Shown here: piece after piece, positions 5,906-62,169 of the stretch
Position numbering within the stretch: the stretch's first letter is position 1
Layout of the letters: each line of letters begins with the position of its first letter
Source of the DNA: Euglena gracilis
Taxonomy: Eukaryota
Assembly: GCA_039621445.1 (NCBI GenBank)
Contig: CP154954.1
Coordinates: 10,001,521-10,065,520 of the forward strand
Direction: 5' to 3'
Length of the DNA: 64,000 nucleotides
Made by a program: the position numbers and the translations under genes
Notes under the pieces: model-generated
Told to the model about the DNA's origin: nothing
What the model saw: the letters and a program-made list of their open reading frames with translations, nothing else
Database searches by the model: none

Positions 5906-6447
5906 TGTTGGCGCAATGGGTCCGCCAAGGAGTTGGTAGGAACAGCCAAATAGCGCAACCCACAGCGGAACAAATTAGAACCCAATCCAAAGGTTTGATG
6001 AAACAAAAATCTTTCTCTTATCCACAGGGTCCTTCTGTTTTCTTTCTACCACTCTTATCCCTTCTACTACCATCACCACAACTTGTACTTCACATTGGTG
6101 TTCCCAATTGTATCAAAGTCATTCATTTTGCTGCATTTGATTCAAGACTTCTTCCCAAGGGTTTCCAAAGGGAATCATTGAATCTTTCCCAAGTATTTTT
6201 TCACCCATTGTCCAGGTTTGTTCTTTTTTTCCAAATCAAAGTCCCTCAATTTTCTCTTGCAAACTGTTTGGTGTGAGATAGGACCTGAGCTCATCCTAGT
6301 CCGCACAAGGAAACAAACTTTTGCACCAAAGGGAAAATGCCAGGGGGGAATTCAAAAGTGGATCCTACGCTTCCGGAAAAGGGCAAAACCCAAATCCGGG
6401 ACCCTGTCTCCTCCCCGGCACCAGGACACGGGGGGGAAGGGGAAACA
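5906..6447 (+). repeat. 5' LTR (542 bp)
   Basis: Starts TGTTGGCG, ends GGAAACA; near-identical to 26127-26668 (about 6 substitutions seen by eye). Confidence 0.96.
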
Positions 6448-9373: not shown

Positions 9374-9437
9374 GGCTGCCAACGCCTTGGGAAGGGGTCG
9401 GTCCCAAGGCGTGGCGCCTATTCTATTCATGCCCCCC
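9371..9437 (+). promoter_or_regulatory. Candidate gag-pol stop-codon readthrough signal (UAG + 8-nt spacer + stem/pseudoknot)
   Basis: TAG 9371-9373 is in frame with pol; 11-bp stem ACGCCTTGGGA(9382-9392)/TCCCAAGGCGT(9402-9412); loop GGGG could pair with the C run at 9432-9437. Confidence 0.65.
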
Positions 9438-9442
9438 AACGA

Positions 9443-12400
9443 TTGGCAATGTTGGACCTGTTTTCTGGGTCGGGTGTTGTTGGTGATTGTTTTCGAAAAC
9501 ACAACTTCTATGTTGTGAGTCTAGATTTGGATCCCAAAACAAACCCAACCATTTTGGTCGACATTTTGCAATGGAATTATAAGCAATGGAATCCTCATTC
9601 TTTTTATGTCATCACCGCGTCATGCCCCTGTGAGGCATATAGCACGGCGCGTTCTATTTTGCCAAGGGATTTTGAATTCGCCGATGCTATTGTTTTGCAA
9701 ACCCTCAAAATTATTCAATGGTTCGATCCTAATTTTTGGTGGATTGAGAATCCAAGGAGGGGTTTCCTGAGAACGAGACCTTTTATGGAAAATATCCCCT
9801 ATGTCGATTTTGACTATTGCCAATTTTCATCATGGGGATACCAAAAACCAACCCGATTCTGGATTTCAGAGTCTTTCAAAGGAATGCCAGAAAGGTTATG
9901 TAACTTTTTGACCTGCGAAAACTTGCTCCTGGGCACCAAAGGACACAAAGTGAGACTGGGGGGTCCAAAAGGTACCGTTTCACAAAAAATGAAAGGTCGA
10001 ATCCCCCATGCGTTGATTGAGTGCCTCATCAACTGGGCGATTCAGACCGATTCTTTGGTTGCTGAAACAAGTGGTTTAACGTTTGACCATGCAAATAATT
10101 CTGCTACCCAATCTGCTAACACATCACACTCAAAACCTACCCCCACTCCCCGAAGAAAAGAGGTGCGTTTCACAATGCCTACCGAAGATGGAGAAATGGA
10201 AAGTCAGGCATCACAAGTTGTGGACCATTTACCTTTTGCAGAATTGACACAAGAAGAGCTCAGGGAGTGGGTTGGTGAATCAAACTCATCCCCCCCAAGT
10301 TTTTTAATGGGTGAGAATGAGTCCGTTTCTATTTACATTCCAAACAGAATGATTGGAGAAAGACATGCTTTTGCCGTTGGAAAATGCAATTTTGTGCACC
10401 AGGAGGATGTTTGGCAATTGTTATTGAGGGTGCAGGTGGGCCTCCCAAACGGAGAACAAAAATGTTTCAGAATTCTTGTTGACACGGGGGCAGAAGTGAA
10501 TTTGGTGAAAAAATCACTCATTTCTCAGCATTCTTTCAGAATGTCCTCACGACCTTTGAAGTTAATAGTGGCTTCGGGACAGGAAATGGAGGGTGGAAAA
10601 AGGGAGGTGGAACTTTCATTGTTTTTCGACCAATTTGAGAATGGAATGCCAGTGGTCGAAATTTTTGAAGCAAAAGGAATTTTCTATGAGGCAAGAATCG
10701 ATGTGGATGCCATTATTTCTTTCAAATGGTTGTATGAACACCAGTTGGGTGTTTTCCCTCACTTACACGCCTTGGCACGAAATGGGGATCATCTCACACT
10801 TTTGAGGGGTGTGAACAAACGGCACCGGTCATTTCACCCTTCACACTTAAGACTGAATGACAAGGGGAAGAGGGGGAGGCAAGGAAAAGACAATGATGCT
10901 CTTGTAACGGAGGGGAGTTTTGATTACACCTTCCAGCAAATGACAAATTGGGGTTTTTGTCTTCCCCCGGAGGTGTTTGAAGTGGAACCCCAATATCTTA
11001 CACGGAAAGAAATTTGTTACATTGCACAAAGATTGTCAGGGGAGGTGGGGGTGAGCACACACGTGGATGGATACATTTGTACTCCTGAAGGTGCCAGGAT
11101 TGTCAATGAGAGGGTGGAGAAGTTGCGTGCCTCCATTATGAATGACTATGGGGATACGGTCCTAAACCCGGAAATCATTTTTGACCCCCCCGTGAGAGGT
11201 CCCTTTGGGTATGCTTATATTCCGTTGAAACCCGATGCAAAACCCGTTCGGCAAAAACCGTTTTCTTTACACGGGGAGCGACAAGAGGCTTACAGGAAAG
11301 TTGCCCAGGGTTGGTTGGACAAAAAATATGTAGAGTTTCCAGAAAGGGGAAAAGTGGAATGGCTTGTTCAAGGTTTTGTGGTTCCCAAGAAAAAACCAGG
11401 AGAATATAGAGGAATTGTCGACATGAGAGGCCCCAATAGCCAAACCCTCCGGGGACATTACGTGATGCCTTTAATATCCGATTTGCTCGTAAGGCAAGGG
11501 GCAAAACAAATTTTCTCCATTTTGGATTTGAGGGAGGCCTTCCACCAACAACCCTTACACCCCGAAAGTCGGCATATCACATGCACATACACACCTTTTG
11601 GGATTGTGCAGTGGAGAGTCAATGCAATGAGTTTAATGAATGCTTCGGGACAATTTCAGCAAATGATGAATGACCGTTTGAGATCTGTCCAACACATAGC
11701 GGACCCATACATAGACGATATTTTGGCGGGCACACGGATTGAAAAGGGGGGGTGGGAAGATTTGCTCACAAAACACGACAAAGAGTTAAGGGAAGTTTTG
11801 GATGTGATGAAAGATGACCGTTTTGGTTGTGATCCACGGAAATGTGAATTTTTTGTGGAGGAAGTTGAGTTTTGTGGACACAAATTAAGTAAGGGGACGA
11901 GAAAGCCCGCCCCTGGAAAATTAAGGGCTATTGAGAATTGGGAATTACCCCCCACCATTACAGCCATGAGAGCATTTCTCGGTTTCACAAATTATTACTC
12001 GGAATACGTGAAAAATTACGCAGAAATTGTGGCCCCCCTTCAGGAAAAGTTGAAAGTACCACGAGCTGAAGGAAAAAAGGGGAGCAAAAAACGGATTGAA
12101 TATTCAGAGGAGGACATCCGATGTTTTGGGGAAATCAAAAGAAAACTTTGTGAGAGTTTGATTCTTCAAAGGGTAAACCCCGATAAACCATTTGTTTTAA
12201 GGGTTGATTCAAGTGGACGAGCGGTAGGGGCGACCTTGGAACAAATGAAGGACATTGAAACTTGTCCCACCGAGGAGGAGGTTCGAAAAGGCAAAACCGT
12301 CCCCGTGGCTTTCCTTTCACGTAAATTAACCACCTCACAAAGAAATTGGATACCCCGGGAGGTGGAAACCTATGCTATCATTTTGGCGTTACAAAAATGG

Positions 12401-12919
12401 GCTTCTTGGATTGGGGTGCAACCAATTTTGGTTTTGACTGACCACCAATCCCTCAAGGATTGGTATACCGAACATGTGGACACCCCGTGTGGACCTATTA
12501 ATAGACGGGCACGGTGGCATCAAATGCTTTCCAAATTTGATTTGACTATTGGCTTTGTGCCGGGAAAAGAAAATTTTATTGCCGACATTTTAAGCCGATG
12601 GGCTTACCCGGCAAGTGAAGCATTTCTCGATGTATCAAAACATGGGAGTTTGAAGGATCTACAGGAAATGAGGGAAATTATCGAATCTGAAAAAGCGGAT
12701 GAAAAATTTTGCATGGTGATTCGACTTCATGCATATCCAGACTCCAAGGATATTTTTGGAGTACGCACCCCAAGTGGGTTGAAGACTTCCGAGGGACATG
12801 ATTTGATTCAAAAAACACGCACGGAGGAAAATTTGCAAGAATCACCACTCATGGAAGGGGGTGGCCCCACAAGCGAGGCGAACCCCCCCCGTGAGAAAAT
12901 TATCAAAAACTATGGGTGA
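9443..12919 (+). CDS. pol: Pol polyprotein: C5-cytosine DNA methyltransferase, aspartic protease, reverse transcriptase, RNase H
   Basis: LDLFSGSG (motif I, 9461-9475), ASCPCEAYS (catalytic PC, 9626-9631), WIENP (motif VI, 9746-9754), YQKPTRFW; ILVDTGA (10481); LDLREAFHQ, YIDDIL (11708); RNase H VDSSGRAVGA, E-TYAI, TDHQSL, NFIADILSR. Confidence 0.93.
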   Translation: MAMLDLFSGSGVVGDCFRKHNFYVVSLDLDPKTNPTILVDILQWNYKQWNPHSFYVITASCPCEAYSTARSILPRDFEFADAIVLQTLKIIQWFDPNFWWIENPRRGFLRTRPFMENIPYVDFDYCQFSSWGYQKPTRFWISESFKGMPERLCNFLTCENLLLGTKGHKVRLGGPKGTVSQKMKGRIPHALIECLINWAIQTDSLVAETSGLTFDHANNSATQSANTSHSKPTPTPRRKEVRFTMPTEDGEMESQASQVVDHLPFAELTQEELREWVGESNSSPPSFLMGENESVSIYIPNRMIGERHAFAVGKCNFVHQEDVWQLLLRVQVGLPNGEQKCFRILVDTGAEVNLVKKSLISQHSFRMSSRPLKLIVASGQEMEGGKREVELSLFFDQFENGMPVVEIFEAKGIFYEARIDVDAIISFKWLYEHQLGVFPHLHALARNGDHLTLLRGVNKRHRSFHPSHLRLNDKGKRGRQGKDNDALVTEGSFDYTFQQMTNWGFCLPPEVFEVEPQYLTRKEICYIAQRLSGEVGVSTHVDGYICTPEGARIVNERVEKLRASIMNDYGDTVLNPEIIFDPPVRGPFGYAYIPLKPDAKPVRQKPFSLHGERQEAYRKVAQGWLDKKYVEFPERGKVEWLVQGFVVPKKKPGEYRGIVDMRGPNSQTLRGHYVMPLISDLLVRQGAKQIFSILDLREAFHQQPLHPESRHITCTYTPFGIVQWRVNAMSLMNASGQFQQMMNDRLRSVQHIADPYIDDILAGTRIEKGGWEDLLTKHDKELREVLDVMKDDRFGCDPRKCEFFVEEVEFCGHKLSKGTRKPAPGKLRAIENWELPPTITAMRAFLGFTNYYSEYVKNYAEIVAPLQEKLKVPRAEGKKGSKKRIEYSEEDIRCFGEIKRKLCESLILQRVNPDKPFVLRVDSSGRAVGATLEQMKDIETCPTEEEVRKGKTVPVAFLSRKLTTSQRNWIPREVETYAIILALQKWASWIGVQPILVLTDHQSLKDWYTEHVDTPCGPINRRARWHQMLSKFDLTIGFVPGKENFIADILSRWAYPASEAFLDVSKHGSLKDLQEMREIIESEKADEKFCMVIRLHAYPDSKDIFGVRTPSGLKTSEGHDLIQKTRTEENLQESPLMEGGGPTSEANPPREKIIKNYG

Positions 12920-14587
12920 GGGCGGCCCTACAAGCGAGGCGAACCCCCCCATAGGAAATTCTGGTCAAAGTGTCGACACAACACCTCAAATTGATGCACC
13001 CCATGATTCGAGCCTTGCCAAACCAGATGTAAGTGGGAGCTCTGACAAGGGGGGGGAGGAGTGCACGCCACCTCTTCTTGTTTCCCATGAAAATCTTGGT
13101 TCAATATGGGATCGGGATTGGGGGGATGCATACGCGTCATGTCCCACGTGGGGGGAACCATGGAAAAGTATCTCAGAAAAATCGGGGGATTGGCCACAGA
13201 ACTTCAAACGTTTTGATTCCCTGATTTACCAAGGAGAAAGGTTGTGTGTTCCTTTGAGTCTACAGGAACACGTCATCCATTCACATCATGACTCCTTTGG
13301 CCATTTGGTTGGGGAAAAGTTATGGAGTCAAATTGGGCATCGATATGCATTTGCAGACATTGCTTGCGCAAAGAGTTTTTCTTTCACCGTGGGAACAATT
13401 TGTTACGTATGTCAAGCTTGCATTCGGCCAAAAACTCTCCATGGGCCCATGGAATATACGGAGATCCCCCCTAAATGCATGGTAAGTGTTGCTCTTGACA
13501 TGTTCAAAATGACTTTTGTCAAGTGGGGGGGAAGAGACTTCAATTTCATGGCGTTATGTGTTGATCGCCATTCGGGTTGGATTGTAGTATCCGCACATTT
13601 GGAAAAGGGATTGACGGGGGCAATGGTGGCCCAAACAATGCTTTTGCACGCTTGGAGGCCTTTTGGAATACCAACCATTATATCCAGTGATAGGGGTGCC
13701 CATTTTGTTGGGGCGTGGTGGAAAACAATGTGCACATTTTGGCATTCGGCAAGCATTTTCCCAAGCATACCATCGTCAAGCAAATGGGAGGGCTGAAATG
13801 GCCGGACAACAAGTCATGGAAATTTTGCGGAAATTATATGTGTACAAGAAAATTTGTTGGGTTGAGGCACTGCTTCAAGTTTTGGATACCATACACGACA
13901 CAATCGGGGAGTGTGGTTTGAGACCATACGAAATTCTTTTCGGAAGGCAACGACAAAGGGGGGGAATACCCTATACACCCACCCGAGAATGTGAGGATGC
14001 CACTGAATGTTTTGAAAGAATGGCCTTTATTGACAAACAAGTGGCAGAAACTTTGAATACCATCCATGAAAAACGACTTTTGACAATGAAGCCAAAAAAA
14101 ATTCACAGATGTGGAATACACAATTGGACAAAAGGTGTGGTATAGACGACCGCCGAACAGTGGAAACAAATTGGAAACACGTTGGTTGGGACCCGCCGTT
14201 ATTAAGGAAAGGCGGGGCACGAATAGGTACATGTTGGAAATCAAACCCGGGGTAGAAACGGGGGTACACAATTCTTTCCTCAAACCTTTTAAAGAGGACG
14301 ATTTGGTGGGTAGACCAATTCATCTTTTTTATCATCAAAGAACCGAACCAGATTTGGAAGCTGGGGTTGATGAATGGGAGGTGGATGAAATTTTGGATCA
14401 CAAAGTGGACAAAAGGGGGAATTTGCTTTTCTTAACCCATTGGAAGGGTTTTCCTATGAGTGAGAACACGTGGGAACCGGTTGGAAATTTCATACACCGA
14501 TACTCTTCAGATTTTGTGAAATATTGCAACCAAAGACAACTTCCCATAGACATCACCAAGTTTTTGTCGGAGGAACCAACCTTGTGA
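12861..14587 (+). pseudogene. Integrase plus chromodomain, split across three frames (12861-13796, 13663-14145, 14111-14587)
   Basis: HHCC (HDSFGH..CYVC), DDE core (VALDMF, SDRGAHF, QANGRAE), WLGP (GPY/F-like), chromodomain WEVDEILDHK..FLTHWKGFPMSENTWEP. Confidence 0.9.
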
Positions 14588-14951
14588 AAGCTTCCCCCCC
14601 ATTCCTCAAAATTTTCATTCAATGGGTTGCTTCCTTGCCCATTTGAGGTTTTTTTCACCCCTTTGTGTTCCTTGGTTTCAGTTTCTTTGCTTTCTATTTC
14701 CTTCAATTCAATGGCTGCTTAACAGCGCCAAGAGGCTGCCAATAAAGCGCCCAATGAGGCAGCTTAAAGCGCCCAATTTCCAAGGTATTTCCCTTGCTAT
14801 GTTTTCTTTGACCCATGAGAGCCATTGCTTTGTGACCATGGCATATATGTGCATTACCCGTTTTTAAATCCTCATTCCAATGTATTTTTGTTTTTCAATT
14901 CATTCTTGCCACTGGTAAATCACCACTTTGTGAAGCAGAAATACTCAAGGG

Positions 14952-15228
<277 letters not shown>

Positions 15229-15419
15229 ATTCATGCGTGCACAAATACATATTCAGGAGTGTTCATCGAACCCCGGCACGCCATTTCAGAAAAAGGGAGA
15301 AAGAGGTGACAAGATGAAGGTGTGCATCAATATCGTTGTTGTTTTGTGATCTCCCCAAGCCTTGAGAGCCCCAATCCGTGTAGCAATATGAGGAAGGCAT
15401 TCGGTTGTATGGACCCTGT

Positions 15420-24290
<8,871 letters not shown>

Positions 24291-26126: not shown

Positions 26127-26668
26127 TGTTGGCGGAATGGGTCCGCCAAGGGGTTGGTAGGAACAGCCAAATAGCGCAACCCACAGCGGAACAAATTAGA
26201 ACCCAATCCAAAGGTTTGATGAAACAAAAATCTTTCTCTTATCCACAGGGTCCTTCTGTTTTCTTTCTACCACTCTTATCCCTTCTACTACCATCACCAC
26301 AACTTGTACTTCACATTGGTGTTCCAAATTGTATCAAAGTCATTCATTTTGCTGCATTTGATTCAAGACTTCTTCCCAAGGGTTTCCAAAGGGAATCATT
26401 GAATCTTTCCCAAGTATTTTTTCACCCATTGTCCAGGTTTGTTCTTTTTTTCCAAATCAAAGTCCCTCAATTTTCTCTTGCAAACTGTTTGGTGTGAGAT
26501 AGGACCTGAGCCCATCCTAGTCCGCACAAGGAAACAAACTTTTGCACCAAAGGGAAAATGCCAGGGGGGAATTCAAAAGTGGATCCTACGCTTCCGGAAA
26601 AGGGTAAAACCCAAATCCGGGACCCTGTCTCCTCCCCGGCACCAGGACACGGGGAGGAAGGGGAAACA
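26127..26668 (+). repeat. 3' LTR (542 bp)
   Basis: TGTTGGCG...GGAAACA, followed by the GTAC target duplication. Confidence 0.96.
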
Positions 26669-27183
26669 GTACCAGCTGTTCCACAGCAGCTGGCCATCCC
26701 TGGTGATCTGCTCCAGCAGAGGCTGCAGCGCAAGGGCGAACCCTATGGGGCCCAACGGGCAGCCTTGGTGTGTGCCTTTCTGTGATGGGATAGAGCCACC
26801 ACCACAGAACAGGGGAACGTGCCCACTGTACGCAAATCTCAGGAAATTGAAAAGACTGGGGGTGCGCGTTTCAGCCTCCGTTAGGATCGCCCCGCGGTCC
26901 ACTGTGTTGAACGCGTTGGAGTAGTCCACCTGGAGGGAAACCCAGGGCGAGGTGTCCCCCAGCTGAGTGACCAGGTGTTGCATGCCCAGAGCGACGGCCT
27001 CTGCCGCGTTTCGCACCCCAACCCCGACCTGGGTAGGGGCGAGGGTCGCGACCTCAGATCTGGTGTTTGGTGTCTGGAGGCAGTCTTGGAGGTGGCTGGG
27101 TCGCAGCCCAGATGGCCCCGGTGCCGATCCCCGCGGGAAACGACGAATGGCCTCCTTCAGTCTGTCCTCCCAGTCAGGGGTGT

Positions 27184-27914
27184 GGAGGCGGACGGACGGA
27201 CGGACAGACGGCTGGTGAAAAAAGCGAAGGTCCGGACGGACGGCTGACCTTGTGGGCTTGGTCCAGACGGCTGAAGAAAATGCACTTGGTCCAGCTAGTC
27301 GGCTGGCCGGCCGGCCGGCTGGCCGGCCAGCCGGCCAGCCGGCCGGGTCTTTGGAAGCGCAGGCGAAGGGCAAGAAAGGTCGCGTAGATCTCCAACCGGA
27401 AGTAACGGTCCAGATCTCCACACAACATGTCAGATCTTTGTACGATGTCCGCTGAGCTGCCCCGTACTACAAGGTTCGTATCAGAGGTGATGCACGGGCC
27501 TATTTCTGTGGTATTTATCATTCAACCTCAAGATGATTATTTCCAACTTCCTGTTTTTTCTGAGGCGGGCACAATAATTTTCATAAAAGTACACGGATGA
27601 TAATGACATCGCCCCCCGTGGCATAGCGGTCGTGTGGTTAGCGTGTGAGCGGTAGGTCGCGGGTTCGAATCCCGCCGGAGGGGCAACTTCGCGTTTTTCC
27701 TGGTCTGACGTGATGAGAAGAGGGGAGCCGTGACTGCTTTTCGGAAGGAAGGAAAAATTTTTTTTGGTCCGGCCGGCTGGCAAGATAGTCATTGGTCCGG
27801 CTTGACGGACGGCTGGCGAAAAAATGCTTCGTCCGGACGGACGGCTGGGCGTCCAGCATTGGTCCGGCTGAAGAGGTCCGGACGGCTCGGACGGACGGAC
27901 GGCCAGCCGCCCCC
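27184..27914. mobile_element. 731-bp TIR insertion in the RT of element A, carrying a tRNA-like sequence
   Basis: Termini GGAGGCGG/CCGCCCCC, TGT duplicated on both sides, (CGGA)n subterminal repeats; removal restores the reading frame FPEKH-TPDWED. Confidence 0.8.
27611..27685 (+). ncRNA. tRNA-like sequence (pseudo-tRNA or SINE head) with Pol III A and B boxes
   Basis: A box TGGCATAGCGG (27619-27629); T-arm GCGGG-TTCGAAT-CCCGC; GCCCC..GGGGC-A acceptor-like stem; anticodon arm does not fold well. Confidence 0.65.
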
Positions 27915-28660
27915 TGTGTTTCTCGGGAAATGGGCGGACGTAACGCGGCAGGCGGTTGGTATCAACGTTCCTGCCGGCAGGGTGTAGCCTTTCCAGGGCA
28001 GCCCAGACTTCTGGGTCGTCAGGCTGGTGTGCGCCCTCGGACAGCAGGATTTGAACTGCCTTCGCGGATGCCCCTTCTGCGGTGAGGGTGCGAACGCGTC
28101 GCGTCATTGCTTCACTGAGGGCGGTGGGCTGTGTTCTAGAGCGCTTTTCCGCCCTAGTTTCTACAATGGAGTGTCGTGTCTGGGTGTCCTTCAGAGCCTC
28201 TGTCAATAGGGTAGCGTAACGCCCTTCGCGGAACAGCCTTGTTCGTCTCAGCAGGATGGATTCCAGCTCTGCTGGCGGCGGTGGTTTGGTTGTTGATGCG
28301 GGACGCAGGACAAGCTTTGGGAAACATAGCACGGCAAACAAAGCCGCGTCCGAGGGTGTGTGTGTATAGGCCGTGATGGCGTCTGCCAAGGTGTCGAAGA
28401 CAGGTTGTTGGCAGGCAGAGGGTAGGTGGATGAAGGTCGGGATTCTCTGTTGAAGGACGTGGGTGATCTCGCACGGGGGAGTGCCCACCACCAGGCTGTG
28501 CATTGGCTGTCCTCGAAGATTGGATTCCTGACCTACGTCGTTAATGACCATCGCCGCGTCGCGTTCCGGGTGAGCGAGGTCCAGGAAAAAGGTTGTCGTG
28601 TTCCCTGGCGTCCGTTTCGGTTGGTGCATTGCGGGGGGACGGCGGTGCCGGACGCTTGGC

Positions 28661-28714
28661 TGGTCCAGGGTTCTCTTCCACATCCCCGCAGGTGAGGAGG
28701 CTACCCCGCCCGCG
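28661..28714 (-). other. 2A ribosome-skipping peptide #3, RGRGSLLTCGDVEENPGP
   Basis: Full DVExNPGP consensus; last 17 residues identical to T2A (EGRGSLLTCGDVEENPGP). Confidence 0.93.
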
Positions 28715-29209
28715 GTTTGCCCCTCCCGTGTGGACGCCGCGCAGCCTCGGGCTACGGTGGCCGTTTTTTGAAAGGATTTGGGCGGACGTCGTCTCGGCCG
28801 GTGGGACCTGTACAGCGTGGAGGAGGGAGCGTGGGGTGGGGTTTAGCCTGAAGGCCGGGTGGCAAATTGGTGGTTTGGGTGCGGCGAAATGTTGGGGCAG
28901 TAGTGTGGGACAGTCCCAAGGCCATTGCCAAAGCCCACAGCGTTGGCACCAGTGAGGGGAGGTTCCCCGGATGTCCCAGAGGGCGTCCAGGTAGATGAGG
29001 AAAGTCCGGCCCGCGTAGTCCCCCAGGTGGAATATTTCGCCGCCATGGATGGTGGTTCGCTCTTTGATAAGGCGGTGCTGCCCCGGGGAGAGGAGGGGTG
29101 CAAGCGGGTATGGTGTGTACGTGGTGCGTGGCCGGCGATGCCGGATGCTAGCGTTGGGGGCGGGGCTTGCCGGCTGCGGGGCACTGCTGAGTGTCCTGCG
29201 GCCAGGGTG

Positions 29210-29605
29210 GCATATCCGCAGGGCCGTGAACGCCCAGGTGCGGGCCGGGAGGAGTGCCGTCCCCCTGGCGCGGTAGATAGGGCACCGCGGCAAGGTCAAG
29301 CTGCCCGAGGAGATGCTCCGTAGGGTAGGCAGCACAGTGGACCACTCTGGTGCAATGAGGATGATGTTGCCCCCATGGCAGAGGACGTGTTCAAGTACAC
29401 GGGGGAGCAAGGAAAAAGGCGGGTTGCACCATAAGGGGTTTGGCAGGTTCCAGTCCTGGAGGAAAGCATCCTCCCTGTGCGACCAAAAGTGGGCTAGTTG
29501 TGTGTTGTTCTGGTGGGCAAAGGCGTCGATGGTGGGCGGGTTATGGGGCGAAAGGGCCTGTACTACCGTGGCGAACCAGGGGGGTCCAGCATAAAGTCCT
29601 CACGT
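29210..29605 (-). CDS. Dam-like DNA N6-adenine methyltransferase domain (phage-Dam/DIRS-MT type)
   Basis: Manual translation: EDFMLDP/WFATVVQALSPHNPPTIDAFAHQNNTQLAHFWSHREDAFLQDWNLPNPLWCNPPFSLLPRVLEHVLCHGGNIILIAPEW; IDAFA 29516-29530, NPPF 29414-29425; 1-nt frameshift in a G6 run near 29580. Confidence 0.85.
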
Positions 29606-29649
29606 GGCGCTCGGCGGGGGAGGTCCTCAGAGAGCCCACCAGCGCCTAT

Positions 29650-29700
29650 GGGGCCGGGATTACTCTCCACGTCTCCGGCGGTGAGGATGGCGTCCCCCCT
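29650..29700 (-). other. 2A peptide #2, RGDAILTAGDVESNPGP
   Basis: Manual translation (not in the ORF track); full DVESNPGP consensus. Confidence 0.9.
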
Positions 29701-29768
29701 GCCATTCGATGCATGAGGGGAAATGGGAATTGGGCTGCCAGCATGTTCCCACCCATCAGAAGCCCTTT

Positions 29769-29959
29769 TGTTTCACAACGGCTTTTCAGCAAAACGGCGA
29801 AAAAGCCGTTCAGCCATTTAGCAAAACGGCAAAAAAGCCGTTTAGCCGTTGGCAAAACGGCAAAAAAGCCGTTTCGCCGTTAGCAAAACGGCGAAAAAGC
29901 CGTTTTGCCAGCCAAAGGTGAGAAAAATGGCAAAAAAGCCGAAAAGCCGAAATGAAACA
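29769..29959. repeat. Small insertion of tandem AAAACGGC(G/A)AAAAAGCCGTT palindromic units with imperfect TIRs
   Basis: TGTTTCA..CGGCTTTTC / GAAAAGCCG..TGAAACA ends; about 30-bp internal repeats. Confidence 0.6.
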
Positions 29960-30542
29960 CATACGGGTGTGAACACAGGTGTGGGTGCTGGCGCGAGGCT
30001 GCTGCTGGAGTCATCGACGATGACCTGCTTGTGGTCGCGTGAGAAGTCATCAGGCATGTCATCGTTTTCATCGTGTTCGTCGTCGCTACCAGAGTCGCTT
30101 TCCATGTCAGAGAGAGACGGCGGTGGACAGATTTGAAGGTGGCGGAGTAGGGGTGATGGGTAAGGGGTTTCGACCACCCGCATACCTTGCACCGCACTAG
30201 CCACCACTCGCCATTTGGCAGTGACTCCAGGTGGTGTACTTCCCAGCGCCAAGTATCCTCCCGTACGGTGGCGAGGGAGAAGATGTTGCCAAAAGGCTTT
30301 GCTGCCTGGCAGTGATGGGACTGCATTTCTCGGAGGGATGACAGGTTGATGTGCTGAGAGCACATGCGGCATCTTGCAAATTCGGTCCCTGGGCCGATCT
30401 GGGCCGGGGCCCCAGAGGATGGACCCGCTGTGGCCGGGGTGCGCAGACGTAGCCACCTCCAGCGCTGGCCATTCCAGTACAGTTCATCCCATACCTCGTC
30501 TGGTGTCAGGGGGGCTGTTTGGCTGGCTGGACCCCCCGAGGA

Positions 30543-30590
30543 AGGGCCCGGGTTTTCTTCGATATCCCCACAGCGCAGGATATCCCTGTG
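30543..30590 (-). other. 2A peptide #1, HRDILRCGDIEENPGP
   Basis: In ORF 29880..31277(-); full DIEENPGP consensus. Confidence 0.9.
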
Positions 30591-31919
30591 GCATTTTTGC
30601 CTTTGGTGGTTGAGCCACATGCCTGCTGGCCACATGGGGCCGCCGGCCGTGTGGGTGTCCACTATGCACCAGGTCCCCCGTGATTTGGCGAGGGGCAGCC
30701 ACCAGACCCCCCCCCCCTGGGGCATAGCACATGGGACGTACAGGAGGAGCTGGACCTCATCGTCTGCCAGGTCAGACCAGGTGCGTCCGGGGGGGTGAGG
30801 GGGAAGGGGGGCCGCATTGATATGGATGTTTTCCAGCCAGTGATCCACGAGGGCTTTTTTGTATTTTTTTCTTTGGCCGGTCCATACCCCCCAAATGGAG
30901 GCGTCCGTCGAGGACAGCACAGACCAGTCGTCTGCGGCTGTCACCGAGTTTGTTGGCAGCTTTGCTGGGGTTTGGGCTTTACCAGCCCTGGCTTGTGCAG
31001 CATTCAGTGGTGTTTTTCTTTCCTCCACTATCTCTGCCACTTGCTGTTTTTCCAGTGTGGACCTGGTCCTTAATTTTTCCAGGACTTTCCAATTAATTTT
31101 CCACACTTTTGCTTCCCCATGGATGCCTGGAAGGACCGCCCAGCCACAACAGCAGCAACAGCTGCAGCCCCAAATGGGGCCACAAATGGGCAGCCAAATA
31201 GGGACCCATGTGGGCAGCCTTCTGGGCAGCCCAGTGGGGAACATCCCCACTATGAGTGCCAGTGCAACAGCCAACAACCATCAAGGGCTGCAGCTCCCCA
31301 CCGACCTGCTGCGACAGCTGCTGTTGCAAATCATGTTGCTGCTGATTGGAAATGTTACAAATCAAAATGGCAGCAACATGCCCAATGCTGTCCCACAATT
31401 AATGGCCCCCCCAGCTGGAACTATTGGACCCTTTCCCCCACAAGTTCTCCCCCTTGTGCCCTGCCCTATGCCCTGCCCAAGCCAAAGGTGGGAAGGGGGG
31501 GGGAACAGGAAGTATTTGAGGTCCCAAAAGAGACAAGACCCCCCCCAAAAAATGCACCACAACACCCCAAATACAGGTGTGTGTGTGTGTGTGTGTGTGG
31601 TGGCCAGGGGTGCGGTAAGGGCTGCTAAGGCTGCTGCTGTGGCTGGTGGCGGAGGTGTCGAGGGATGTACTTGTGCTGGTGCTTTTGTCGTAGGTAGTCT
31701 TCGTAGGCTTCTTCTTCTCTTTTTCTTTTTCCGGTTCGTCCCTGCAGGTACTCCACCTTGTCGGCCAGGGCGTCGATCTTGCCAGCTAAGCTCTGCATGT
31801 TCTGAGCCACCAGGCTCACTTGGTCCAGCACCGTAGTCAATTTTTTGTTCAGGATGACGTTGTCCAGCGTCACCTCCAGCACGGCCGGTGGACCTTCTGG
31901 GGCTGCCGCCCCGACATGG

Positions 31920-32979: not shown

Positions 32980-33512
32980 CCAGGGGGTGTTCCCCCCGCG
33001 TCCCCCCCGCGTCCCCCCCCGCGTCCCCCCCGCGTCCCGGATTTTGGCCGGGCACGTTTTTTGCTCGACCAAAGGAAAATTACGTACAAATTTAGGTGAC
33101 GCCAAAGAAAACGTGTTGGGGTGGTTGGGCCACGGTTCCCCCCCGCGTCCCCCCCCGCGTCCCCCCCCGCGTCCCGAACCACCCCCCAGCGACCATTGCC
33201 CAAGGGTTTGCAGGAATTATTCCGACTCTGGCCCATCGCGCTTCACTGGAAGAGGAATCTGACGACCTCGTGTTGGAATCCCCGCCACCCACTCAGCAAA
33301 GGTCAGCGGAGGGGGTGTTCCCCCCGCGTCCCCCCCGCGTCCCCCCCGCGTCCCGGATTTTGGCCGTGCACTTTTTTGGTCGACCGAAGGAAAATTACAT
33401 GCAAATTTAGGTGACGCCAAAGAAAACGTGTGGTGGTGGTTGGGCCACGGTTCCCCCCCGCGTCCCCCCCGCGTCCCCCCCCGCGTCCCCCCCCCGCATC
33501 CCGAACCACCCC
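32980..33512 (+). repeat. About 330-bp-period direct duplication with (CCCCCCGCGT)n units
   Basis: 32980-33190 is repeated at 33310-33512. Confidence 0.8.
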
Positions 33513-35172
33513 CGGAGAAACAGAGGCTCCGCCGCTTCGCTCTGGCAAATTCCGGAGACAGCGCCGCCACCACTCTCCTTCCCAAAACAGATTTGCACTA
33601 AAAGACCGCATCGGAGCCAACAAAAGGCCCCTGCTCGAAGCTCAAAAATTCCTTCGCAGCCCGTGTCCATCCCCGGCGCGAGAGGGTCGACGACCTCTTC
33701 ACGCTTGGTGAGGTGGCGGCAAAGCAAGGCGGCAAAAAGCACAGCGCCGGCGGTCAGGTCACCGGCCCGCCATCCACGCAGTCGCCTGGCGGGGATGAGC
33801 CTGCCGTGCACCTTGAGGATGCTCCATAGCGGGTTGCCACCGGCGCCCAGGCCAAAAACCGCACCGGGATTTGGAAAGGGTGAAAGTGATGCAGCACGAA
33901 GAAAAGCTTTCGCCGTAAGTTACCACGGCCGGTCGGGCAGAGGTGATGACCTCCTGACGTCGGGCGACGTGGAGGCAAACCCGGGACCCACCCCCTTGGG
34001 AGATCCCGTGGCAGGAACCAAGGATATTGACTTGTCTACGGACCCCGCACGAGCGGTGGGATTCTTGTTGGCCGTGCCCCCTTCCGCTCTAGGCCCACCG
34101 GAGGAGACCTCGACGCAGGACGCCCGGGACCTCCAGCAACTTCTGCAGACCCTCCTCAGCCGACCACCACCGGAAGCCGCTCTCCCCATTGATGGTTCCA
34201 GAGCCACGACTCGCGGCCCAGCACAGCCTTGGGGAATTTCTGATCGAGGACCCAGACTGATGGGTAGAGGTGGGCTCCCTACTTGCGGTGATATTCAGGA
34301 AAACCCGGGCCCGAGAACGTGTGGCCGAAAAGAGGTCGAAAAAATAGCCGGCCGGCCCAAAACATTGATAACGGGGTTCGCCTGGGGCCAGAGATCTCGG
34401 TGGCCATTGACGTTGATGACCCGGCCCCGGCCCCAGCAGCGTCGTCCGCTCCTTTGCAGGCGGCGATGGACACCGATGGCCCCGCTTTGCCTTTTGTGCC
34501 CGGAGGCCGACGGGAAGGAACACCCCTTTCTTAGCCCTGCCCTTTGCTCGAGCCGACCTGGGACGCCATTTCGCATGACCTCAGGGGGACCATCGCTCAC
34601 ATCCCGCGGGGTGCGGTGCAGGCGGTGGCTCAAATATACGCAATTCGACTGAGAGACTACAACCAGCGCCCCTCCTGGGAGTCGTTGCACGCGCTGTGGT
34701 GTATGCCGAAGGCGGTGTTGGCACCCTTGGCACGCGCCGGCAGAAACCATTGGGCACAGCTAGGGAAAGCCATCGGAACCAGGGCACGCGCCTATCTCCT
34801 GCAACCAGTCGCAACCTCTTGGCAGCAGTCCCAAAAGCCGGCCGCAAACCCCGTCTCCTCGGTGTCCACACGCTCCGCCGCAAGCAGAGCGGAAGACGTC
34901 CAGACGGAACGCTTCATCCGCCGGATGGAAACGTTGGTGGCCAGAGGGGCTGTGGGGAAGGCCTGCCAGTTGCTCCTCTCCGAAGGAGTGCAGGACGCGG
35001 CTCATCCCGCCGTGCGTGAGAGATTACGCCGGATGCACCCAACAGAGGCGGAACCTGGAAGGGGACCTACTTTGAGGTGGAAACCACTATCACGTAGCGA
35101 CGATGTGGCAGACGACCGCCGTATGGTGAAACATGCAGTGCGTAGCTTCGGCCCGGAGTCTGCGGCAGGCCC

Positions 35173-35598
35173 CATAGCTGGCGTTTTTTTTGTTTTTTTA
35201 AAAAAACGTTTTTTTTTGTTTTTTATTAAAAAAAACAGGCAAAAAAAACGGCAAAAAAACAAAGGGGAAAATGATGGTCCAAATTTTGCCTTTGATCGCA
35301 AGGGTGAACCAATCTTAGCTCAAATGACTTGAAAACCAATACTTTTGGAGGTCTTCAACAAGAATGGTCAAAATAGGGCATTTTTCTGCCATTTTGGGAT
35401 GTGTCAACTTGAAACATCCCAAATTTGGTGTCTTTCTCTGCCTGCGGATGGGCAAAAAAAAGCTAAAATTAAAGGCAAAAAAATTTTTTGCCCTAGACCC
35501 TCAATGGCGTTTTTTTTGTTTTTTTTAAAAAAAAACATGTTTTTTTTTAAAAAAAACGTGTTTTTTTTGACTTCGTTTTAAACGAAGTGCCAGCTATG
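35173..35598. mobile_element. hAT-like MITE
   Basis: Perfect TIR CATAGCTGGC/GCCAGCTATG; 8-bp TSD GCAGGCCC; removal restores the RT frame. Confidence 0.9.
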
Positions 35599-36804
35599 GC
35601 AGGCCCCCCAGGACTTCGGCCTGAGCACCTGAAGTCCTTACTCAGCGACGAGGCCGGGGGCTCGGCAGAGGATGTCCTGGATGAGTTGACGGAGTTTGTC
35701 TTCGGGTGCATGCTTGGGGGAATCCCCAATGGGGCGGCACAGGTGATGTGTGCTGCACGCCTGACCCCCCTCCGAAAAACCAAAACCGGGACAGGGGCAC
35801 CCACAGACCCTGTGGGCAAGACATCCCCAGAAGAGGAGGGCACTCGGCCCATCGCAGCTGGGGAAACCCTGCACCGCCTGGTGGTGAAAGTGCTAATGCG
35901 CCACCCGGAGGTCCGTCGGTCCCTGGCCACAGCCCTACCTCAGCAACTGGGAGTGGGCGTACCTGATGCATGCGCTCTGATAGGAATGGGTATCCAGCAG
36001 CTAGTGGACGGCCTCTCTCACGTTGGAAAGGCAGACTGGGGACTGCTCCAGCTGGATTTTTCAAACGCATTCAACTGCATCTCGAGAGATAATTTGCTGG
36101 CAGAAGTCGCTGAGCGATGCCCTCCGCTGCTTCCTTGGTTGGAGAGTTGTTACGCCCGCCATTCTCAGTTGTATCTCGGAAAAACCTCACTCCGAAGCAA
36201 GTCCGGTGTGCAGCAAGGGGACCCGTGTGGGCCGGCTGCCTTTGCCCTCGGGATACAGTCCCTCTTGGACAAGCTGCAAGGTATCGTGGGCTGGCAAGCC
36301 TGGTACCTGGATGATGCCCACATCATGGGCACGCCGGAACAGCTCGAAAGGGCATTAAGGCTGATCCTGAACGAGGGGCCACAGATTGGTGTGGGACTCA
36401 ACCTGACGAAGTGCAAACTCTGGGGTCCCGCATTTGTTGCGCGTGGAGAAGGCCTGCTTCAGGGCATCCCAGTGGCATCCCACCTTTCACACCCGGTTCT
36501 GGCATCCGTGCGCTAGGAGTGCCCGTCTGCCACCCGGCAGGACGCCTGGACTTTGCCACTGTCCTTTGGGAGGAGCGCCTCTCGGGAGTCCGGAAAGCGT
36601 GCGACCTGCTGCAATTGCTGCCGTCGCCGCACCTACAGTTCACGGTGCTCAGGCAATGTCTTGATGCATGTAAAGTAAACGACCTGCTTCGAACCACACA
36701 CCTCTCGGGAGCCAAGGTGCCATGCCATTCCTTTGCCACTCTCCTTCGGGACACAATGTCCGTCATCACCGCTCGCCCACTGGATGATAAACAGTGGGCA
36801 CAAG

Positions 36805-37556
36805 CAGGGGTGTAGAAGTATTTTTTTCTCGGGGGGGGCGAGATTCTTGACAAGGCCCATTATGACCATTTTTTCCCCGCCGCCCAAAGGGCGGCGAGAC
36901 GGTAGCGCTCTTTTCCATAAAAGATGGCATTGGGGGCTAGGCGCACCGCTCAGGGGGGTCCTGGGACCCCCCCCCCCCGCACGGCCCCTGCGCGGCCGCC
37001 TTCGACCAGGCTTCTTTTTAAGACCCCCGGGGGGGAGGGGGGGTCCCCCCCACCCACCCAGGGTGGCGCGGGACCCCCCCGGGGGGGGGGGGGCGGGGAC
37101 ACCCCCAAAATTGAGCCCGTTAAAGGCAATTTTCAACCCCGGACCCACCCACCCACCCCCCCCTCCCCCGGGGGGCGGGGTCGGGTGACTTAAAAAGAAG
37201 CCTCCAAAAGGTTTCCGCAAAAAGAGCCAAATTTGTCAACAGGAATGGTGTGTTTATGAAAAAATGAATTTTTGAAGCCATGTCAAAACACATGCCGTTT
37301 GGTTCCGCCCCGTGGAAAAAGATTTTTGCCCCCTCCGACCCATGAGTTTTGGACTTGTTTTGCCGCCCGAAGGGCGGCGAGACGGTAGCGACATTCAACA
37401 GCAAAAACAGAATGAAAAGTTGCGACCTTTTGTGAGAAATTTAAAAGGCACAGAGAATGTGGTGAGTAAAATACACACTTTGCAAAAAAAAACTTATTTC
37501 CAAAATCTCGGGGGGGGGCAGCCGCCCCCCCCCGACCCCCCACTTCTACACCTATG
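36805..37556. mobile_element. hAT-like MITE
   Basis: TIR CAGGGGTGTAGAAGT/ACTTCTACACCTATG; 8-bp TSD GGCACAAG; removal restores QWAQASLP. Confidence 0.9.
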
Positions 37557-43096: not shown

Positions 43097-45030
43097 GATG
43101 ATGCCGGCACAGGCCGTTGTCGTTGCTGAGGCTGGCTTGGGACCCACGCCAACCCCAACTGCATTTTTGGCGAAATTAAAGGACTTCACGGAATCCACTC
43201 CAAAGAAGGAATCTGCGGACACAGTCCTTTTTGCCTGATGGTAGCGCCAAAAACCAGAAAGGAGGTTATGTAGCTCTTGTCAATTTCCAGAAAATTTGTG
43301 AGGTCAGAGGCCACAAAACCAATGACTTGGATGAGTATATGTGCGCTTTTGCGAAGCATGTCCTCTCGGTGCATGCCATGTTCGACACGGAAGCTGAAAA
43401 TATTGCCCACAAGGCCCAAAGACAGCTTCTATGTCAGCAGGCTGGTGTACCCATGTGTGAGTGGGCTCCGCAGACGTTGACAACTTATGTCGACACATTG
43501 GCTGTGATGCACAAATTGACGAAGCCTGAGCATGTAATCGTCCCAAAAGCAAAAACCCAGTTTCCAACTTTTGTCCGATTTGTGGACTCATGTTCATCAC
43601 GGCTGAAAAAGTTCAGAGCACGTCAGCCAGAGGTGCGGGTGCTGGATGATTCAGATGTGCTCAAGCTACATGCACAGACCAAGTGGGATCCTGGTTTGAG
43701 ACGCAACGCTACAACATCCTTGTGCTGTCATACATTTTGGGGCAAAGGTCGGAAAGCATGGAGCTTCTTCGTATTGGAAATTTTCACCCAGACACCGTTG
43801 ATGGCCAGCCAATTTTGAAAGTTAAATTCGGAAAGATGAAAAATTTGCAAAGCGGCTCTTCCAAAGAAGCTCACGAGCAAATTCTTTTTGCCCATGAAAA
43901 TGAAAAGTTATGTCCCCTAGCTGCATACCATCGCCAACTTGCCGTTGTGGAGTCTGATGACCGCAACGGGCCATTTTTCCTTGGTGGTGGAAACATGTCT
44001 GCAGCACGCGACAGCAAAAAAACGCAAGGAGCAAACAAGACCAGCAACAATGTCGACCTTGAAAGGAGCGGTTTTGTGGGCGCGTGGGGTCCTGGGTCGC
44101 CCAGTGACGTTTCGGGACTGTGCCAGGCGGCCTGTTTTCACCCGCTTGGTTAACTCCATGGGTGCGCACAATGCTGCTCGTGTTGTGGGTGTGGTACCAC
44201 GTACAATGGACCGCTACCACAGAGCCCTACCAAGTGATGTGCAACTACAAGCAGCTGCCGTTTTGGCCAAGGTGCCTCCCCCCACAATCGTTTTGCTTCA
44301 CAACTTCATTCATAGTCTACCCTCAAGGTGGAAAAGAAGGAGGATCCTGACGTGAAAAATGGAACACCGAAGAAAGAGGAGAGTGTGAAGATGGAGGTTT
44401 CGAAGTCTGAGGAGCCTGAGATTGTGTCTGTGAAACCAAAGGTCTTTGATGTGGATGCACCTCGCCAGGTAAAGAACACTTTTTCCTTCATAATTACCAA
44501 AATTTTCCGCTGCAACCTCGTGCAAAACGTCCTCGCACTGTTCTGTATCGTGGTGAACCCATCGTCGTCGATGAGAACTCCAGTGACGAGGTTATGTGTT
44601 CAACTTTTATGTGACTGCTAACCACCAACTTTCTCAGGAGCCGGTGATTTGCTCGCAGTATAGTTTGGAGCGCTACCTGGAGGCCAAGAAGGCCGAGTAC
44701 CGGGAGGCGGTCTTTGCTGCGCCGCCGGCACCGGAGGGAGCTGCCACCTCGGTCGTCATGGATAACCTTCCTAACCTCTTCCCGGTCCTGAAGACAGAAA
44801 CCACCGAGGAGCGCATACAAGGAAAGCCTTGTGCTCGGTGTTTTCTGCCTTTGGGCAAGCGAGGCTTGCTTCGCCCAATGGATTGCAATCTGTGCCACGA
44901 ATTTTGGCACCTTGACTGTGCTGGCCGCACCATGCCCCCTCCCCGCAACAGTTGGTGTTGTCCTCGGTGCGATGGCAGGGAGATGCCTCCCATGCCCGCT
45001 CGTGTTCTGAACGCGAAGCGCAAGCACTGA
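43097..45030 (+). pseudogene. Intron-containing tyrosine recombinase + PHD finger gene (Crypton-like), frameshifted
   Basis: LGQRSES (Arg box), KMKN, LCPLAAY, GPFFL, TFRDCARR, TMDRYH (Tyr); GT-AG introns 44272-44327 and 44591-44637 (CTAAC branch); PHD CARC..CNLCHEFWHLDC..WCCPRC. Confidence 0.7.
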
Positions 45031-61344: not shown

Positions 61345-62169
61345 GGTGGCGCCTGTGGGTGACCTCCTAACGGACCCAAGCAAAGTGAGTTCCTTGTCTC
61401 CCACGATGGTGAAACAAAAGTGGTGGACAGATGAGGTCGTCAAGGTCCGGGCAGACCTGCTTTTGGCTGGCCTTGTTGGAAATGACGCGGTCCGTTTCGC
61501 ATGCCAGCGGAGGCCGCACGCCATGGCGTGGGCAGCGGTCAACCCCTCTGCCCCCCCTAAAAACCCTCATCCCACCGGCAGAATTCAGAGCCCTGACTCA
61601 GTGGTCCTTGGGGTGCCAAGTTTGCCCCACAACGACAGATGGCCCCTTGCCGGAATGCCCCCGCTGCCACCAACAAATGGATGTTGGAGAAAATCACCTT
61701 GTCTGCTGCCCCAAAAACAACACTTTGCGGCGACATGGTGCCCTCCAGACGTTCGTTTTGGACCTTGCGAGAAGGGCCGGATTCGTGGGTGGCAGACAAC
61801 CGGACGAGACTTGGAGATGTCTTCATCACGAGATTCGACGCGGACGGACCTGCTGCAGTGGATGTCACGGTCCGCCACCCGTTGCAACCAGCAAACCCGG
61901 TCTCCTCAATGGATGCCTTGGCACGGTGGCACGAATTACAAGAGGGAGACAAAGAACGCAAGTATGCAGCCACCTGCGAACGGCTGGGATGGACGTTCAT
62001 CCCGTTTGTGGTGGATTGCTTCGGAGGGATGGGGGAGCGAGCGGCAGGATTCATATCCAAGTGCCTCCGTACTGTGTTGGCGCAGACCGATGTTCCCCAA
62101 CGACGATCGTCAGAGGCCACGGTGTGGCAAGCGCTGAGTCTAACGTTGGCAAGAGAATTGGCTCGCTAG
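61345..62169 (+). mobile_element. 3' end of an RLE non-LTR element (CCHC knuckle + restriction-like endonuclease), probably the rest of element B
   Basis: KQKWW, AMAW, EFRALTQWSLG, CPRCHQQMDVGENHLVCC, RRHGALQ, RLGDVFI..AVDVTV, EGDKERKY, FIPFVVDCFGG; frameshifted. Confidence 0.9.

Follow-up and report, generated by a model that had tools for sequence, protein, structure and literature searches.

A stretch of 64,000 nucleotides of Euglena gracilis DNA (assembly GCA_039621445.1, contig CP154954.1, positions 10,001,521 to 10,065,520 of the forward strand; hereafter the window, numbered from its first letter) carries on its minus strand a broken copy of a retrotransposon without long terminal repeats (non-LTR retrotransposon), which encodes a methyltransferase (MT) domain of the Dam/DIRS type in addition to a reverse transcriptase (RT) and a restriction-like endonuclease (RLE). 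Transposable elements are abundant in this eukaryotic DNA. In the family to which this copy belongs, the MT very probably forms a cassette bounded by 2A motifs within the RT-RLE element. Judged by our literature search, the combination of MT, 2A motifs and RLE appears to be new, the separate ingredients being already known.

The MT domain is encoded at 29195-29584 (minus strand). Its residues lie in the open reading frame (ORF) 28541-29599 of the same strand (352 aa, standard code, no stop), which reads PPTIDAFAHQNNTQLAHFWSHREDAFLQDWNLPNPLWCNPPFSLLPRVLEHVLCHGGNIILIAPEW and contains the motifs DAFA (29527-29516) and WCNPPF (29431-29414, directly preceded by a Leu codon), with IAPEW further downstream. 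An earlier note on this DNA, made from the sequence alone, had proposed a Dam-like adenine-N6 methyltransferase on the minus strand at 29210-29605 and a comparison with the Dam profile of Pfam. In fact, the family PF05869 matches the domain with 33.2 bits (E=5.2e-8) against a gathering score of 28.1, i.e., above the curated threshold, and adenine-N6 methyltransferases are found among its fold neighbours (see below); both bear the proposal out. A search of 1.84 billion representative proteins with the 130-aa MT sequence as a query retrieved 608 proteins at E<=1e-3 (63 at E<=1e-10, two at E<=1e-30), and Pfam Dam also matches 129 of the best 150 of these 608. In an alignment of 82 sequences, which share 25-52% identity with the window, W50 is invariant, and at least 90% of the sequences share P22, D25, F27, A28, N32, W39, A45, W57, N59, P60, P61, F62, P84 and W86, each position taken by itself. 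Furthermore, the L-W-C-N-P-P-F of the window matches the pocket logo of transposon DAM domains (hydrophobic-aromatic-x-Asn-Pro-Pro-aromatic) given in section 9 of the available text of a bioRxiv preprint (10.64898/2026.05.21.726589).

For the whole cassette (312 aa), AlphaFold2 gave a model, built from the 82-row alignment, in which the predicted local distance difference test score (pLDDT) is above 90 for residues 1-135. With the MT model, Foldseek placed PCIF1/CAPAM (6irx), a cap-specific mRNA adenosine-N6 methyltransferase, at the top (E=1.1e-4), ahead of TrmI, KsgA and Erm. The VIA structural search, which is independent of Foldseek, gave PCIF1 (Z 10.0 over 126 residues, root-mean-square deviation (rmsd) 3.1, 17% identity), ErmE (Z 8.8), T4 Dam (Z 8.6 over 104 residues, rmsd 2.5), EcoDam (Z 8.2) and DpnM (Z 7.1); all 12 chains with Z>=8 are methyltransferases. 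PCIF1 is the closest solved fold, yet it stands only 1.2-1.4 Z above ErmE and T4 Dam, and its sequence match has E=0.4: a PDB search with the MT profile returned nothing significant, its top entries being an endoglucanase (E=0.19) and PCIF1. As modelled, the domain is a short class I (Rossmann) adenine-N6 methyltransferase core, whose fold does not discriminate between DNA and RNA as a substrate. PCIF1 shares the NPPF catalytic motif and also has a WW domain; this cellular protein measures 480-700 residues and includes a helical domain, whereas here only the 135-residue core is present.

Three 2A motifs are located on the minus strand of the element: 2A #1 (KCHRDILRCGDIEENPGP, 30543-30596), 2A #2 (GRGDAILTAGDVESNPGP, 29650-29703, within ORF 29563-29772) and 2A #3 (RGRGSLLTCGDVEENPGP, 28661-28714, in frame with the MT ORF). 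The pattern D[VI][EQ]xNPGP has five matches in the six frames of the window versus none in 300 block shuffles; three of the five are on the MT-bearing element and two on a neighbouring element. Motifs were found at the positions that the earlier note had given for 2A #2 and 2A #3 (29703-29650 and 28714-28661). Its claim that the methyltransferase is flanked by 2A motifs holds with one correction: the motifs do bound the MT, but 2A #2 and the MT stand in different frames in the window copy, the frame changing at a C-run at ~29578. The 2A frames of the window are broken downstream of #1, #2 and #3 and upstream of #2; the frame upstream of #1 is open, and no relative or domain backs coding there. 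In the relatives P0156, P0200 and P0201, 2A motifs are in frame with coding sequence on both sides. It is likely that the 2A motifs separate the products. Note that 2A #3 seems very similar to the 2A peptide of an insect virus that is widely used in biotechnology.

Judged from sequence comparison, the element is an RLE-type non-LTR retrotransposon of the R2 group, an assignment that stops above the level of the RLE clades (CRE, R2, R4, NeSL and HERO in the available text of PMC4640811). An RT-RLE profile made from 36 sequences matches R2 proteins best (9nl3, E=3.6e-35), in one stretch (profile positions 293-1004) through RT, linker and endonuclease, whereas its match to L1 ORF2p (1e-13) covers the RT only. 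By this profile match the RT is of the R2 type, and, as in R2 (9nl3, 9dou, 8gh6), RT, linker and a C-terminal CCHC plus PD-(D/E)xK endonuclease are collinear. R2 itself is a single protein with N-terminal zinc-finger/Myb domains and is not known to possess 2A or a methyltransferase. The relative P0004 alone had no match in the PDB. In the 36-sequence RT-RLE alignment, C1106, C1109, H1119, C1123, D1183 and K1214 are invariant. Pfam searches with five long relatives (P0156, P0200, P0201, P0004, P0016) revealed RVT_1, Dam and, in two of them, SLBP_RNA_bind, and no apurinic endonuclease (APE), integrase or RNase H domain. The only LTRs on the element are those of a nested LTR retrotransposon, and neither its ORFs in the window nor the long relatives show hallmarks of DIRS elements (tyrosine recombinase, RNase H, inverted or split terminal repeats). 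Named RT-RLE relatives are all distant (Effrenium voratum with 28% identity, Diplonema papillatum, and one EukProt entry). A dinoflagellate spliced-leader motif (21 nt) has no match in the window at <=3 mismatches.

The MT cassette is native to this element family and under constraint. Six long metagenome proteins have MT, 2A, RT and RLE in a single open frame. P0004 (1294 aa, a single ORF from a metagenome assembly) is collinear with the minus strand of the window from the MT through the RLE, its residues 4-285 (MT, Cys module, 2A) corresponding to 29584-28652. P0156 (2111 aa), P0200 (1736 aa) and P0201 (1849 aa) possess, in one ORF each, the three-2A plan of the window, i.e., X-2A-Y-2A-[MT + Cys/WPW module]-2A-[RT-RLE], with NPPF and CxxC...WPWxC between 2A #2 and 2A #3, followed by YLDD and the CCHC...RPAD endonuclease. 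Two further proteins vary this plan: P0016 has the order MT-2A-2A-RT-RLE, and P0023 consists of an N-terminal region, the MT, three 2A-like motifs and the RT-RLE. The collinearity of P0004 and the shared plan of P0156, P0200 and P0201 agree with the proposal of the earlier note that the methyltransferase is carried inside a non-LTR retrotransposon. The refuting conditions named in that note do not apply: both a profile match and a fold match were obtained, and neither a tyrosine recombinase nor an RNase H was found beside the MT.

A strict D[VI]ExNPGP is present in the same predicted protein in 37 of the best 150 of the 608 MT homologues (26 in ranks 1-50, 7 in 51-100, 4 in 101-150), many of the others being short fragments. 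An MT tree was calculated with FastTree from the 102 rows covering at least 95 profile positions (51 of 153 rows were dropped). In this tree, the window is placed within a 43-row clade (support 99) in which 29 rows have 2A, whereas none has it in a separate 38-row clade (support 96), which includes LTR/DIRS-type rows; some rows of the latter have RTs scoring 80-116 bits on RVT_1, typical of LTR/DIRS-type RTs. The 2A label requires 18 changes on the tree versus a mean of 31.4 after shuffling, with none of 500 shuffles as low. A search of metagenome DNA led to 17 loci with 25-46% identity, none of which has 2A or a match to the RT-RLE of P0004, 15 of them matching P0004 in the MT part only. These loci were set aside as other Dam-type elements; they are no DNA-level relatives of this one. 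Note also that P0003 (483 aa) has tandem MT domains, the first with NPPH and the second with NPPF, and then the WPW module.

In the same cassette, the MT is followed after a variable linker by a beta-rich Cys module of ~65 residues (the WPW module; 28850-29092, minus strand, with CxxC...WPWxC at 28948-28910). Ten sequences of this module share R29, F31, W39, D40, C49, C52, W57, P58, W59, C61, L64 and L65 without exception. When seven cassettes are compared pairwise, the mean identity is 0.49 for the MT, 0.20 for the linker, 0.45 for the WPW module, 0.29 for the tail and 0.76 for 2A, a pattern that selection on two folded domains and on the 2A would produce. The model of the WPW module has a pLDDT of 69; a structural search gave a best Z of 2.6 and the ESM Atlas no usable match, which is not proof of a new fold. 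Concerning the first 2A cassette, residues 40-101 of P0201 match the SLBP histone-hairpin RNA-binding domain (PF15247) with 50.6 bits, and residues 153-189 of P0200 match it weakly (20.1 bits); Pfam found no SLBP match in cassette 1 of the window. An SLBP-type first cassette could be the counterpart of the ORF1p of long interspersed elements (LINEs).

We propose that in this family one long frame with three 2A motifs would give rise to four products: an N-terminal protein (with an SLBP-type RNA-binding domain in one relative), a small zinc-finger-like protein, a free protein of ~300 residues in which the Dam/DIRS-type MT is joined to the small Cys/WPW module, and the RT-RLE enzyme. By ribosome skipping at these motifs, MT-WPW would be released from the very mRNA that encodes the RT-RLE. 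MT-WPW would then act as an S-adenosylmethionine-dependent adenine-N6 methyltransferase on the replication intermediates of the element, the likeliest substrate being either the RNA:DNA hybrid or the DNA newly made at the site of integration during target-primed reverse transcription, and new copies would thereby be marked with N6-methyladenine (6mA). As reverse transcription takes place on the chromosome in the RLE class, the MT could act directly at the integration site. DNA marking is favoured because the only sequence family passing its threshold is the phage-type DNA Dam, and because DAM domains have been linked to raised 6mA on LTR copies in section 11 of the preprint cited above. Nevertheless, this reading is tentative, and we would put it slightly below an even chance; that the MT has any catalytic activity at all is about evenly balanced.

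Several observations weigh against DNA marking. The Pfam Dam alignment is limited to profile positions 26-71 of 169, the domain is short (~135 residues), and the best solved fold is that of an RNA enzyme (PCIF1, Z 10.0 versus 8.6 for T4 Dam). The window copy is broken, and a second element of the family in the window (33.4-36.9 kb) has no MT cassette. Furthermore, DAM domains of DIRS elements, LTR elements and adintoviruses caused no rise of 6mA in dam-deficient E. coli (10.64898/2026.05.21.726589, in its available text), and the MT of DIRS1 was assigned to the PCIF1 clade, its copies being 'likely inactive', in the available text of Iyer et al. (PMC4738411).

By analogy with DIRS1, the MT could be native to the element and still not methylate, serving instead as a nucleic-acid- or protein-binding module (e.g., for holding the transcript or mimicking PCIF1 at RNA polymerase II). 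We regard this as unlikely. Transcript binding or PCIF1 mimicry is what Iyer et al. proposed for the DIRS1 MT (PMC4738411), and an inactive module would also fit with the negative E. coli assays of other transposon DAMs, with a domain that is shorter than prokaryotic Dam and devoid of CD-1 and TR-1 (both from the available text of 10.64898/2026.05.21.726589), and with the lack of significance of the PDB sequence matches. However, NPPF and DxFA persist in 90% or more of the 82 aligned sequences in spite of a divergence to 25-52% identity, as expected of a catalytic pocket, and the argument for DIRS1, as laid out in the available text, is built on substitutions of DIRS1 copies that are not seen here (PMC4738411).

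Quite unlikely, in our view, is a released protein that works as a PCIF1-like RNA adenosine-N6 methyltransferase on the transcript of the element, cap-proximally or internally; it would change the stability, translation or recognition of the transcript rather than mark DNA. PCIF1 is indeed first in Foldseek (E=1.1e-4) and in VIA (Z 10.0, 126 residues) and, when the PDB was searched with the profile, the sole methyltransferase listed, with a match far short of significance (E=0.4); the RNA adenine methyltransferases Erm and KsgA come after it in the fold ranking. Moreover, non-LTR elements operate as ribonucleoproteins on their own mRNA, and the first cassette of P0201 is an SLBP-type RNA-binding domain (50.6 bits). 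However, T4 Dam (Z 8.6, rmsd 2.5), EcoDam (8.2) and DpnM (7.1) are within ~1-3 Z of PCIF1, the only sequence family above threshold is a phage-type DNA Dam, and the substrate is not fixed by fold neighbours. Finally, that the MT stretch is a fragment of a separate DIRS or LTR element which landed in a non-LTR copy is hardly credible: the window copy does carry other insertions (the LTR element, repeats, a tRNA-like piece) and a related element in the window lacks the MT, but the order 2A-MT-WPW-2A-RT-RLE is found in single ORFs of six proteins with RT-RLE parts 32-52% identical to that of P0004, no tyrosine recombinase, RNase H or repeat boundary surrounds the MT, and 2A is present in 29 of 43 rows of the window clade of the MT tree versus 0 of 38 in the LTR/DIRS-type clade, so an insertion with DIRS flanks is unsupported.

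Going beyond DNA marking by this element, a wider scenario can be drawn, which we consider doubtful as a whole: a widespread R2-type lineage, probably of marine protists, would assemble its proteome from 2A-delimited modules exchanged among element lineages, and a working MT with its own small targeting domain would write N6-methyladenosine (m6A) on the RNA of the element or 6mA on the hybrid or DNA arising in target-primed reverse transcription. If true, no LINE-like element before this one would be known to possess a writer of adenine methylation, and 2A would be seen to serve multi-cistronic expression naturally in a non-viral setting.

DAM domains are known from DIRS elements and, since the preprint of May 2026, from Ty3-type LTR elements (10.64898/2026.05.21.726589); according to its available text, they are less unusual in retrotransposons than the earlier note had supposed. 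The MT of the Euglena element resembles them in belonging to the PF05869 family, in its NPP pocket motif, in its short fold and in its position inside a retrotransposon polyprotein. In contrast, DAM domains of DIRS (tyrosine recombinase) and Ty3-type LTR elements are part of Pol and are presumably freed by a protease or left fused, whereas here the domain is 2A-bounded and belongs to an RLE non-LTR element. No non-LTR class appears in sections 4 (part 1), 7, 9, 11 and 13 of the preprint, although its supplements could list one. Some Euglena 'DAM-LTRs' branch with LINE/L1-like RTs and are regarded by the authors as possible chimeras (same preprint, available text).

Other non-LTR elements share single traits with the one described here. 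SymbioLINE-Dnmt of Symbiodiniaceae (de Mendoza et al. 2018, PMC5890265, in its available text) is a non-LTR element with its own methyltransferase upstream of the RT as well, but this enzyme methylates cytosine at C5 and has an ORF1 to itself, and the endonuclease is of the APE type; no 2A was found in that account, in which the term 'self-cleav' is absent. Among 2A-bearing LINEs, L1Tc is known, as are the APE-type clades treated by Odon et al. 2013, cited together with Heras et al. 2006 in the available text of PMC13405545, which also describes ORF2p forms with DUB domains beside 2A. They resemble our element in having D(V/I)ExNPGP in the LINE frame, sometimes delimiting an accessory domain. 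However, the described 2A LINEs are APE-type or Dualen and usually have a single 2A close to the N-terminus (PMC13405545), whereas the element studied here is RLE-only and has three 2A motifs plus an MT cassette. The word 'methyltransferase' is absent from the available text of both 2A surveys. NeSL/Utopia elements (PMC4640811, available text) are RLE non-LTR elements with an accessory enzyme domain N-terminal to the RT as well; this is an Ulp1-like cysteine protease fused in the polyprotein instead of a 2A-delimited methyltransferase. A full-text literature search, with Repbase and supplements outside its scope, revealed neither an RLE element nor any other non-LTR element with a methyltransferase of the Dam or PCIF1 type, and no such methyltransferase bounded by 2A.

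Retrotransposon-borne DNA/RNA modifiers show how mobile elements handle host epigenetic control, and a Dam domain in an RLE non-LTR element represents a third, mechanistically different class after DIRS and LTR elements. The 2A framing predicts a free enzyme of ~300 residues, which could be expressed and assayed alone; as a free enzyme, it may escape the effect of context by which the negative results with polyprotein-embedded DAMs in E. coli have been explained. Furthermore, with its three 2A motifs the element represents an unusually elaborate cellular use of ribosome skipping.

In the window copy, all parts of the element are encoded on the minus strand. Cassette 1 is the open frame upstream of 2A #1 (30597-31280, within ORF 29880-31280); it has no Pfam family at E<=10, and relatives align to this region only from ~30650 downward. 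Cassette 2, between 2A #1 and 2A #2 (30001-30542), encodes a small Cys/His-rich (zinc-finger-like) protein, as detected with tblastn (P0001 aa 9-52 versus 30317-30180, 39% identity, E=2.8e-5; P0156 aa 617-725 versus 30650-30303, E=0.003); no Pfam family passes here. A high-copy repeat with visible tandem units is inserted in cassette 2 at 29740-30000, where contigs of the public DNA runs X1 and X5 skip 234-261 bases and where the word depth in X1 is 250,970, with thousands alongside. The first frame break lies at the C-run 29578-29579, one base separating the frames of 2A #2 and the MT (tblastn frame switch at 29581/29584); an extra letter at 29578 is present in one X1 contig (depth 457.7/601.3) and one X5 contig (depth 39.3/39.3). 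The second one is at the T-run 28586-28590, past 2A #3 and ahead of the RT protein: the P0004 alignment runs in frame -1 to 28652 and then in frame -2 from 28620, and the letter at 28586 is missing in one X1 contig (depth 963/9306).

The N-terminal region of the RT-RLE protein follows at 27928-28620 (38% identity to P0004 aa 297-538, 44% to P0006 aa 325-557). The stretch 27080-27927 is disrupted by extra high-copy repeat DNA and a tRNA-like sequence: residues 538-643 of P0004 (~315 nt) correspond to 849 nt in the window, i.e., ~530 bases are extra, and X1 word depths reach 356,663 and 368,417. The tRNA-like sequence (27612-27684, plus strand; ARAGORN, with an odd four-base anticodon call) within this very high-copy DNA is possibly a short interspersed element. 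The N-terminal half of the RT (26669-27079, ending ...WNSWY) is 55% identical to P0004 aa 643-779 and has 29.5 bits on RVT_1, marginally below the cut-off of 29.6. The nested LTR retrotransposon (5906-26668, plus strand; LTRs 5906-6447 and 26127-26668) splits the RT at YLDD, and the C-terminal half of the RT (LDDG...), the linker and the RLE (CCHC...RPAD at 4923-4735) are located at 4669-5904 (47% identity to P0004 aa 779-1190, E=4.6e-111). The 3' end of the element is gone beyond ~4660.

The window copy is dead: it has two homopolymer frame breaks, repeat insertions and a 20.7-kb LTR element in the RT, and it lacks the 3' end; either homopolymer break could be an assembly error. For the T-run at ~28586, simple decay or an error in the homopolymer is preferred to programmed frameshifting, since there is no standard slippery heptamer and the relatives are single-frame. 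The element family is abundant: 5056 X1 contigs match 26669-31400 with 88-100% identity (1226 at >=99%, 1606 at 95-99%, 1838 at 90-95%, 386 at <90%). The word depth of the MT region in X1 is of the same order as that of the RT region; note that summed depth does not equal copy number. In two RNA runs, 5-6% of each of which was read, 9 and 48 reads fell on the element, nearly all of them on high-copy repeats, and in one run the depth over the MT was 0.14-0.16.

Another RLE-type element of this family is present on the plus strand at 33411-36851 (RT at 34490-36851, 2A motifs at 33936-33989 and 34260-34313), and an RLE piece of it is found ~25 kb off at 61373-62163 (plus strand), other insertions having probably split the element. 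Its two 2A motifs enclose only ~100 residues, with no MT among them. In the RT it shares 52-55% identity with its nearest relatives P0200 and P0201, which both bear the cassette; the cassette can thus be lost. In an RT-RLE tree of 22 chosen rows, P0200 and P0201 are sisters (support 100), and MT-bearing rows occur in three separate parts of a 16-row clade (support 100). In an MT tree of 30 rows, forcing P0200 and P0201 together costs 53.9 log-likelihood units (approximately unbiased test, p=8.9e-5). This sequence comparison suggests that the cassette moved between element lineages, which we treat as a lead only, as the group was named post hoc after the first tree and P0201 is on a long branch.

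The nested LTR element (20.7 kb) has LTRs of 542 bp that are 98.9% identical, TG...CA ends and a 4-bp GTAC duplication exactly in the codons W-Y|L-D-D of the RT. On the plus strand, it encodes gag (6289-8199), RT-RNase H (9374-12919) and integrase (12807-13796). The N-terminus of its pol (9374-10273) has C5 cytosine-methyltransferase-like motifs (DLFSGSG, PCEAYS, ENP); Pfam DNA_methylase matches this stretch with E=0.008 and 16.1 bits, below the 22-bit cut-off, and a PDB search with it gave no methyltransferase match. If real, this would be a Ty3-type element with its own 5-methylcytosine writer nested in an element with an adenine-methyltransferase cassette. Inside the LTR element, tandem arrays of ~9 kb (14876-23960, periods of ~8, 52 and 70 bp) are partly very G-rich on the plus strand (GC 0.65, GC skew 0.52 at 20-22 kb). 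Elsewhere in the window, three blocks of a 26-codon (78-nt) tandem repeat at 54325-60154 are open in several frames on both strands. The ORFs 581-1273 and 43180-43818 (both on the plus strand) are paralogous, have no Pfam family and are probably parts of another repeated element.

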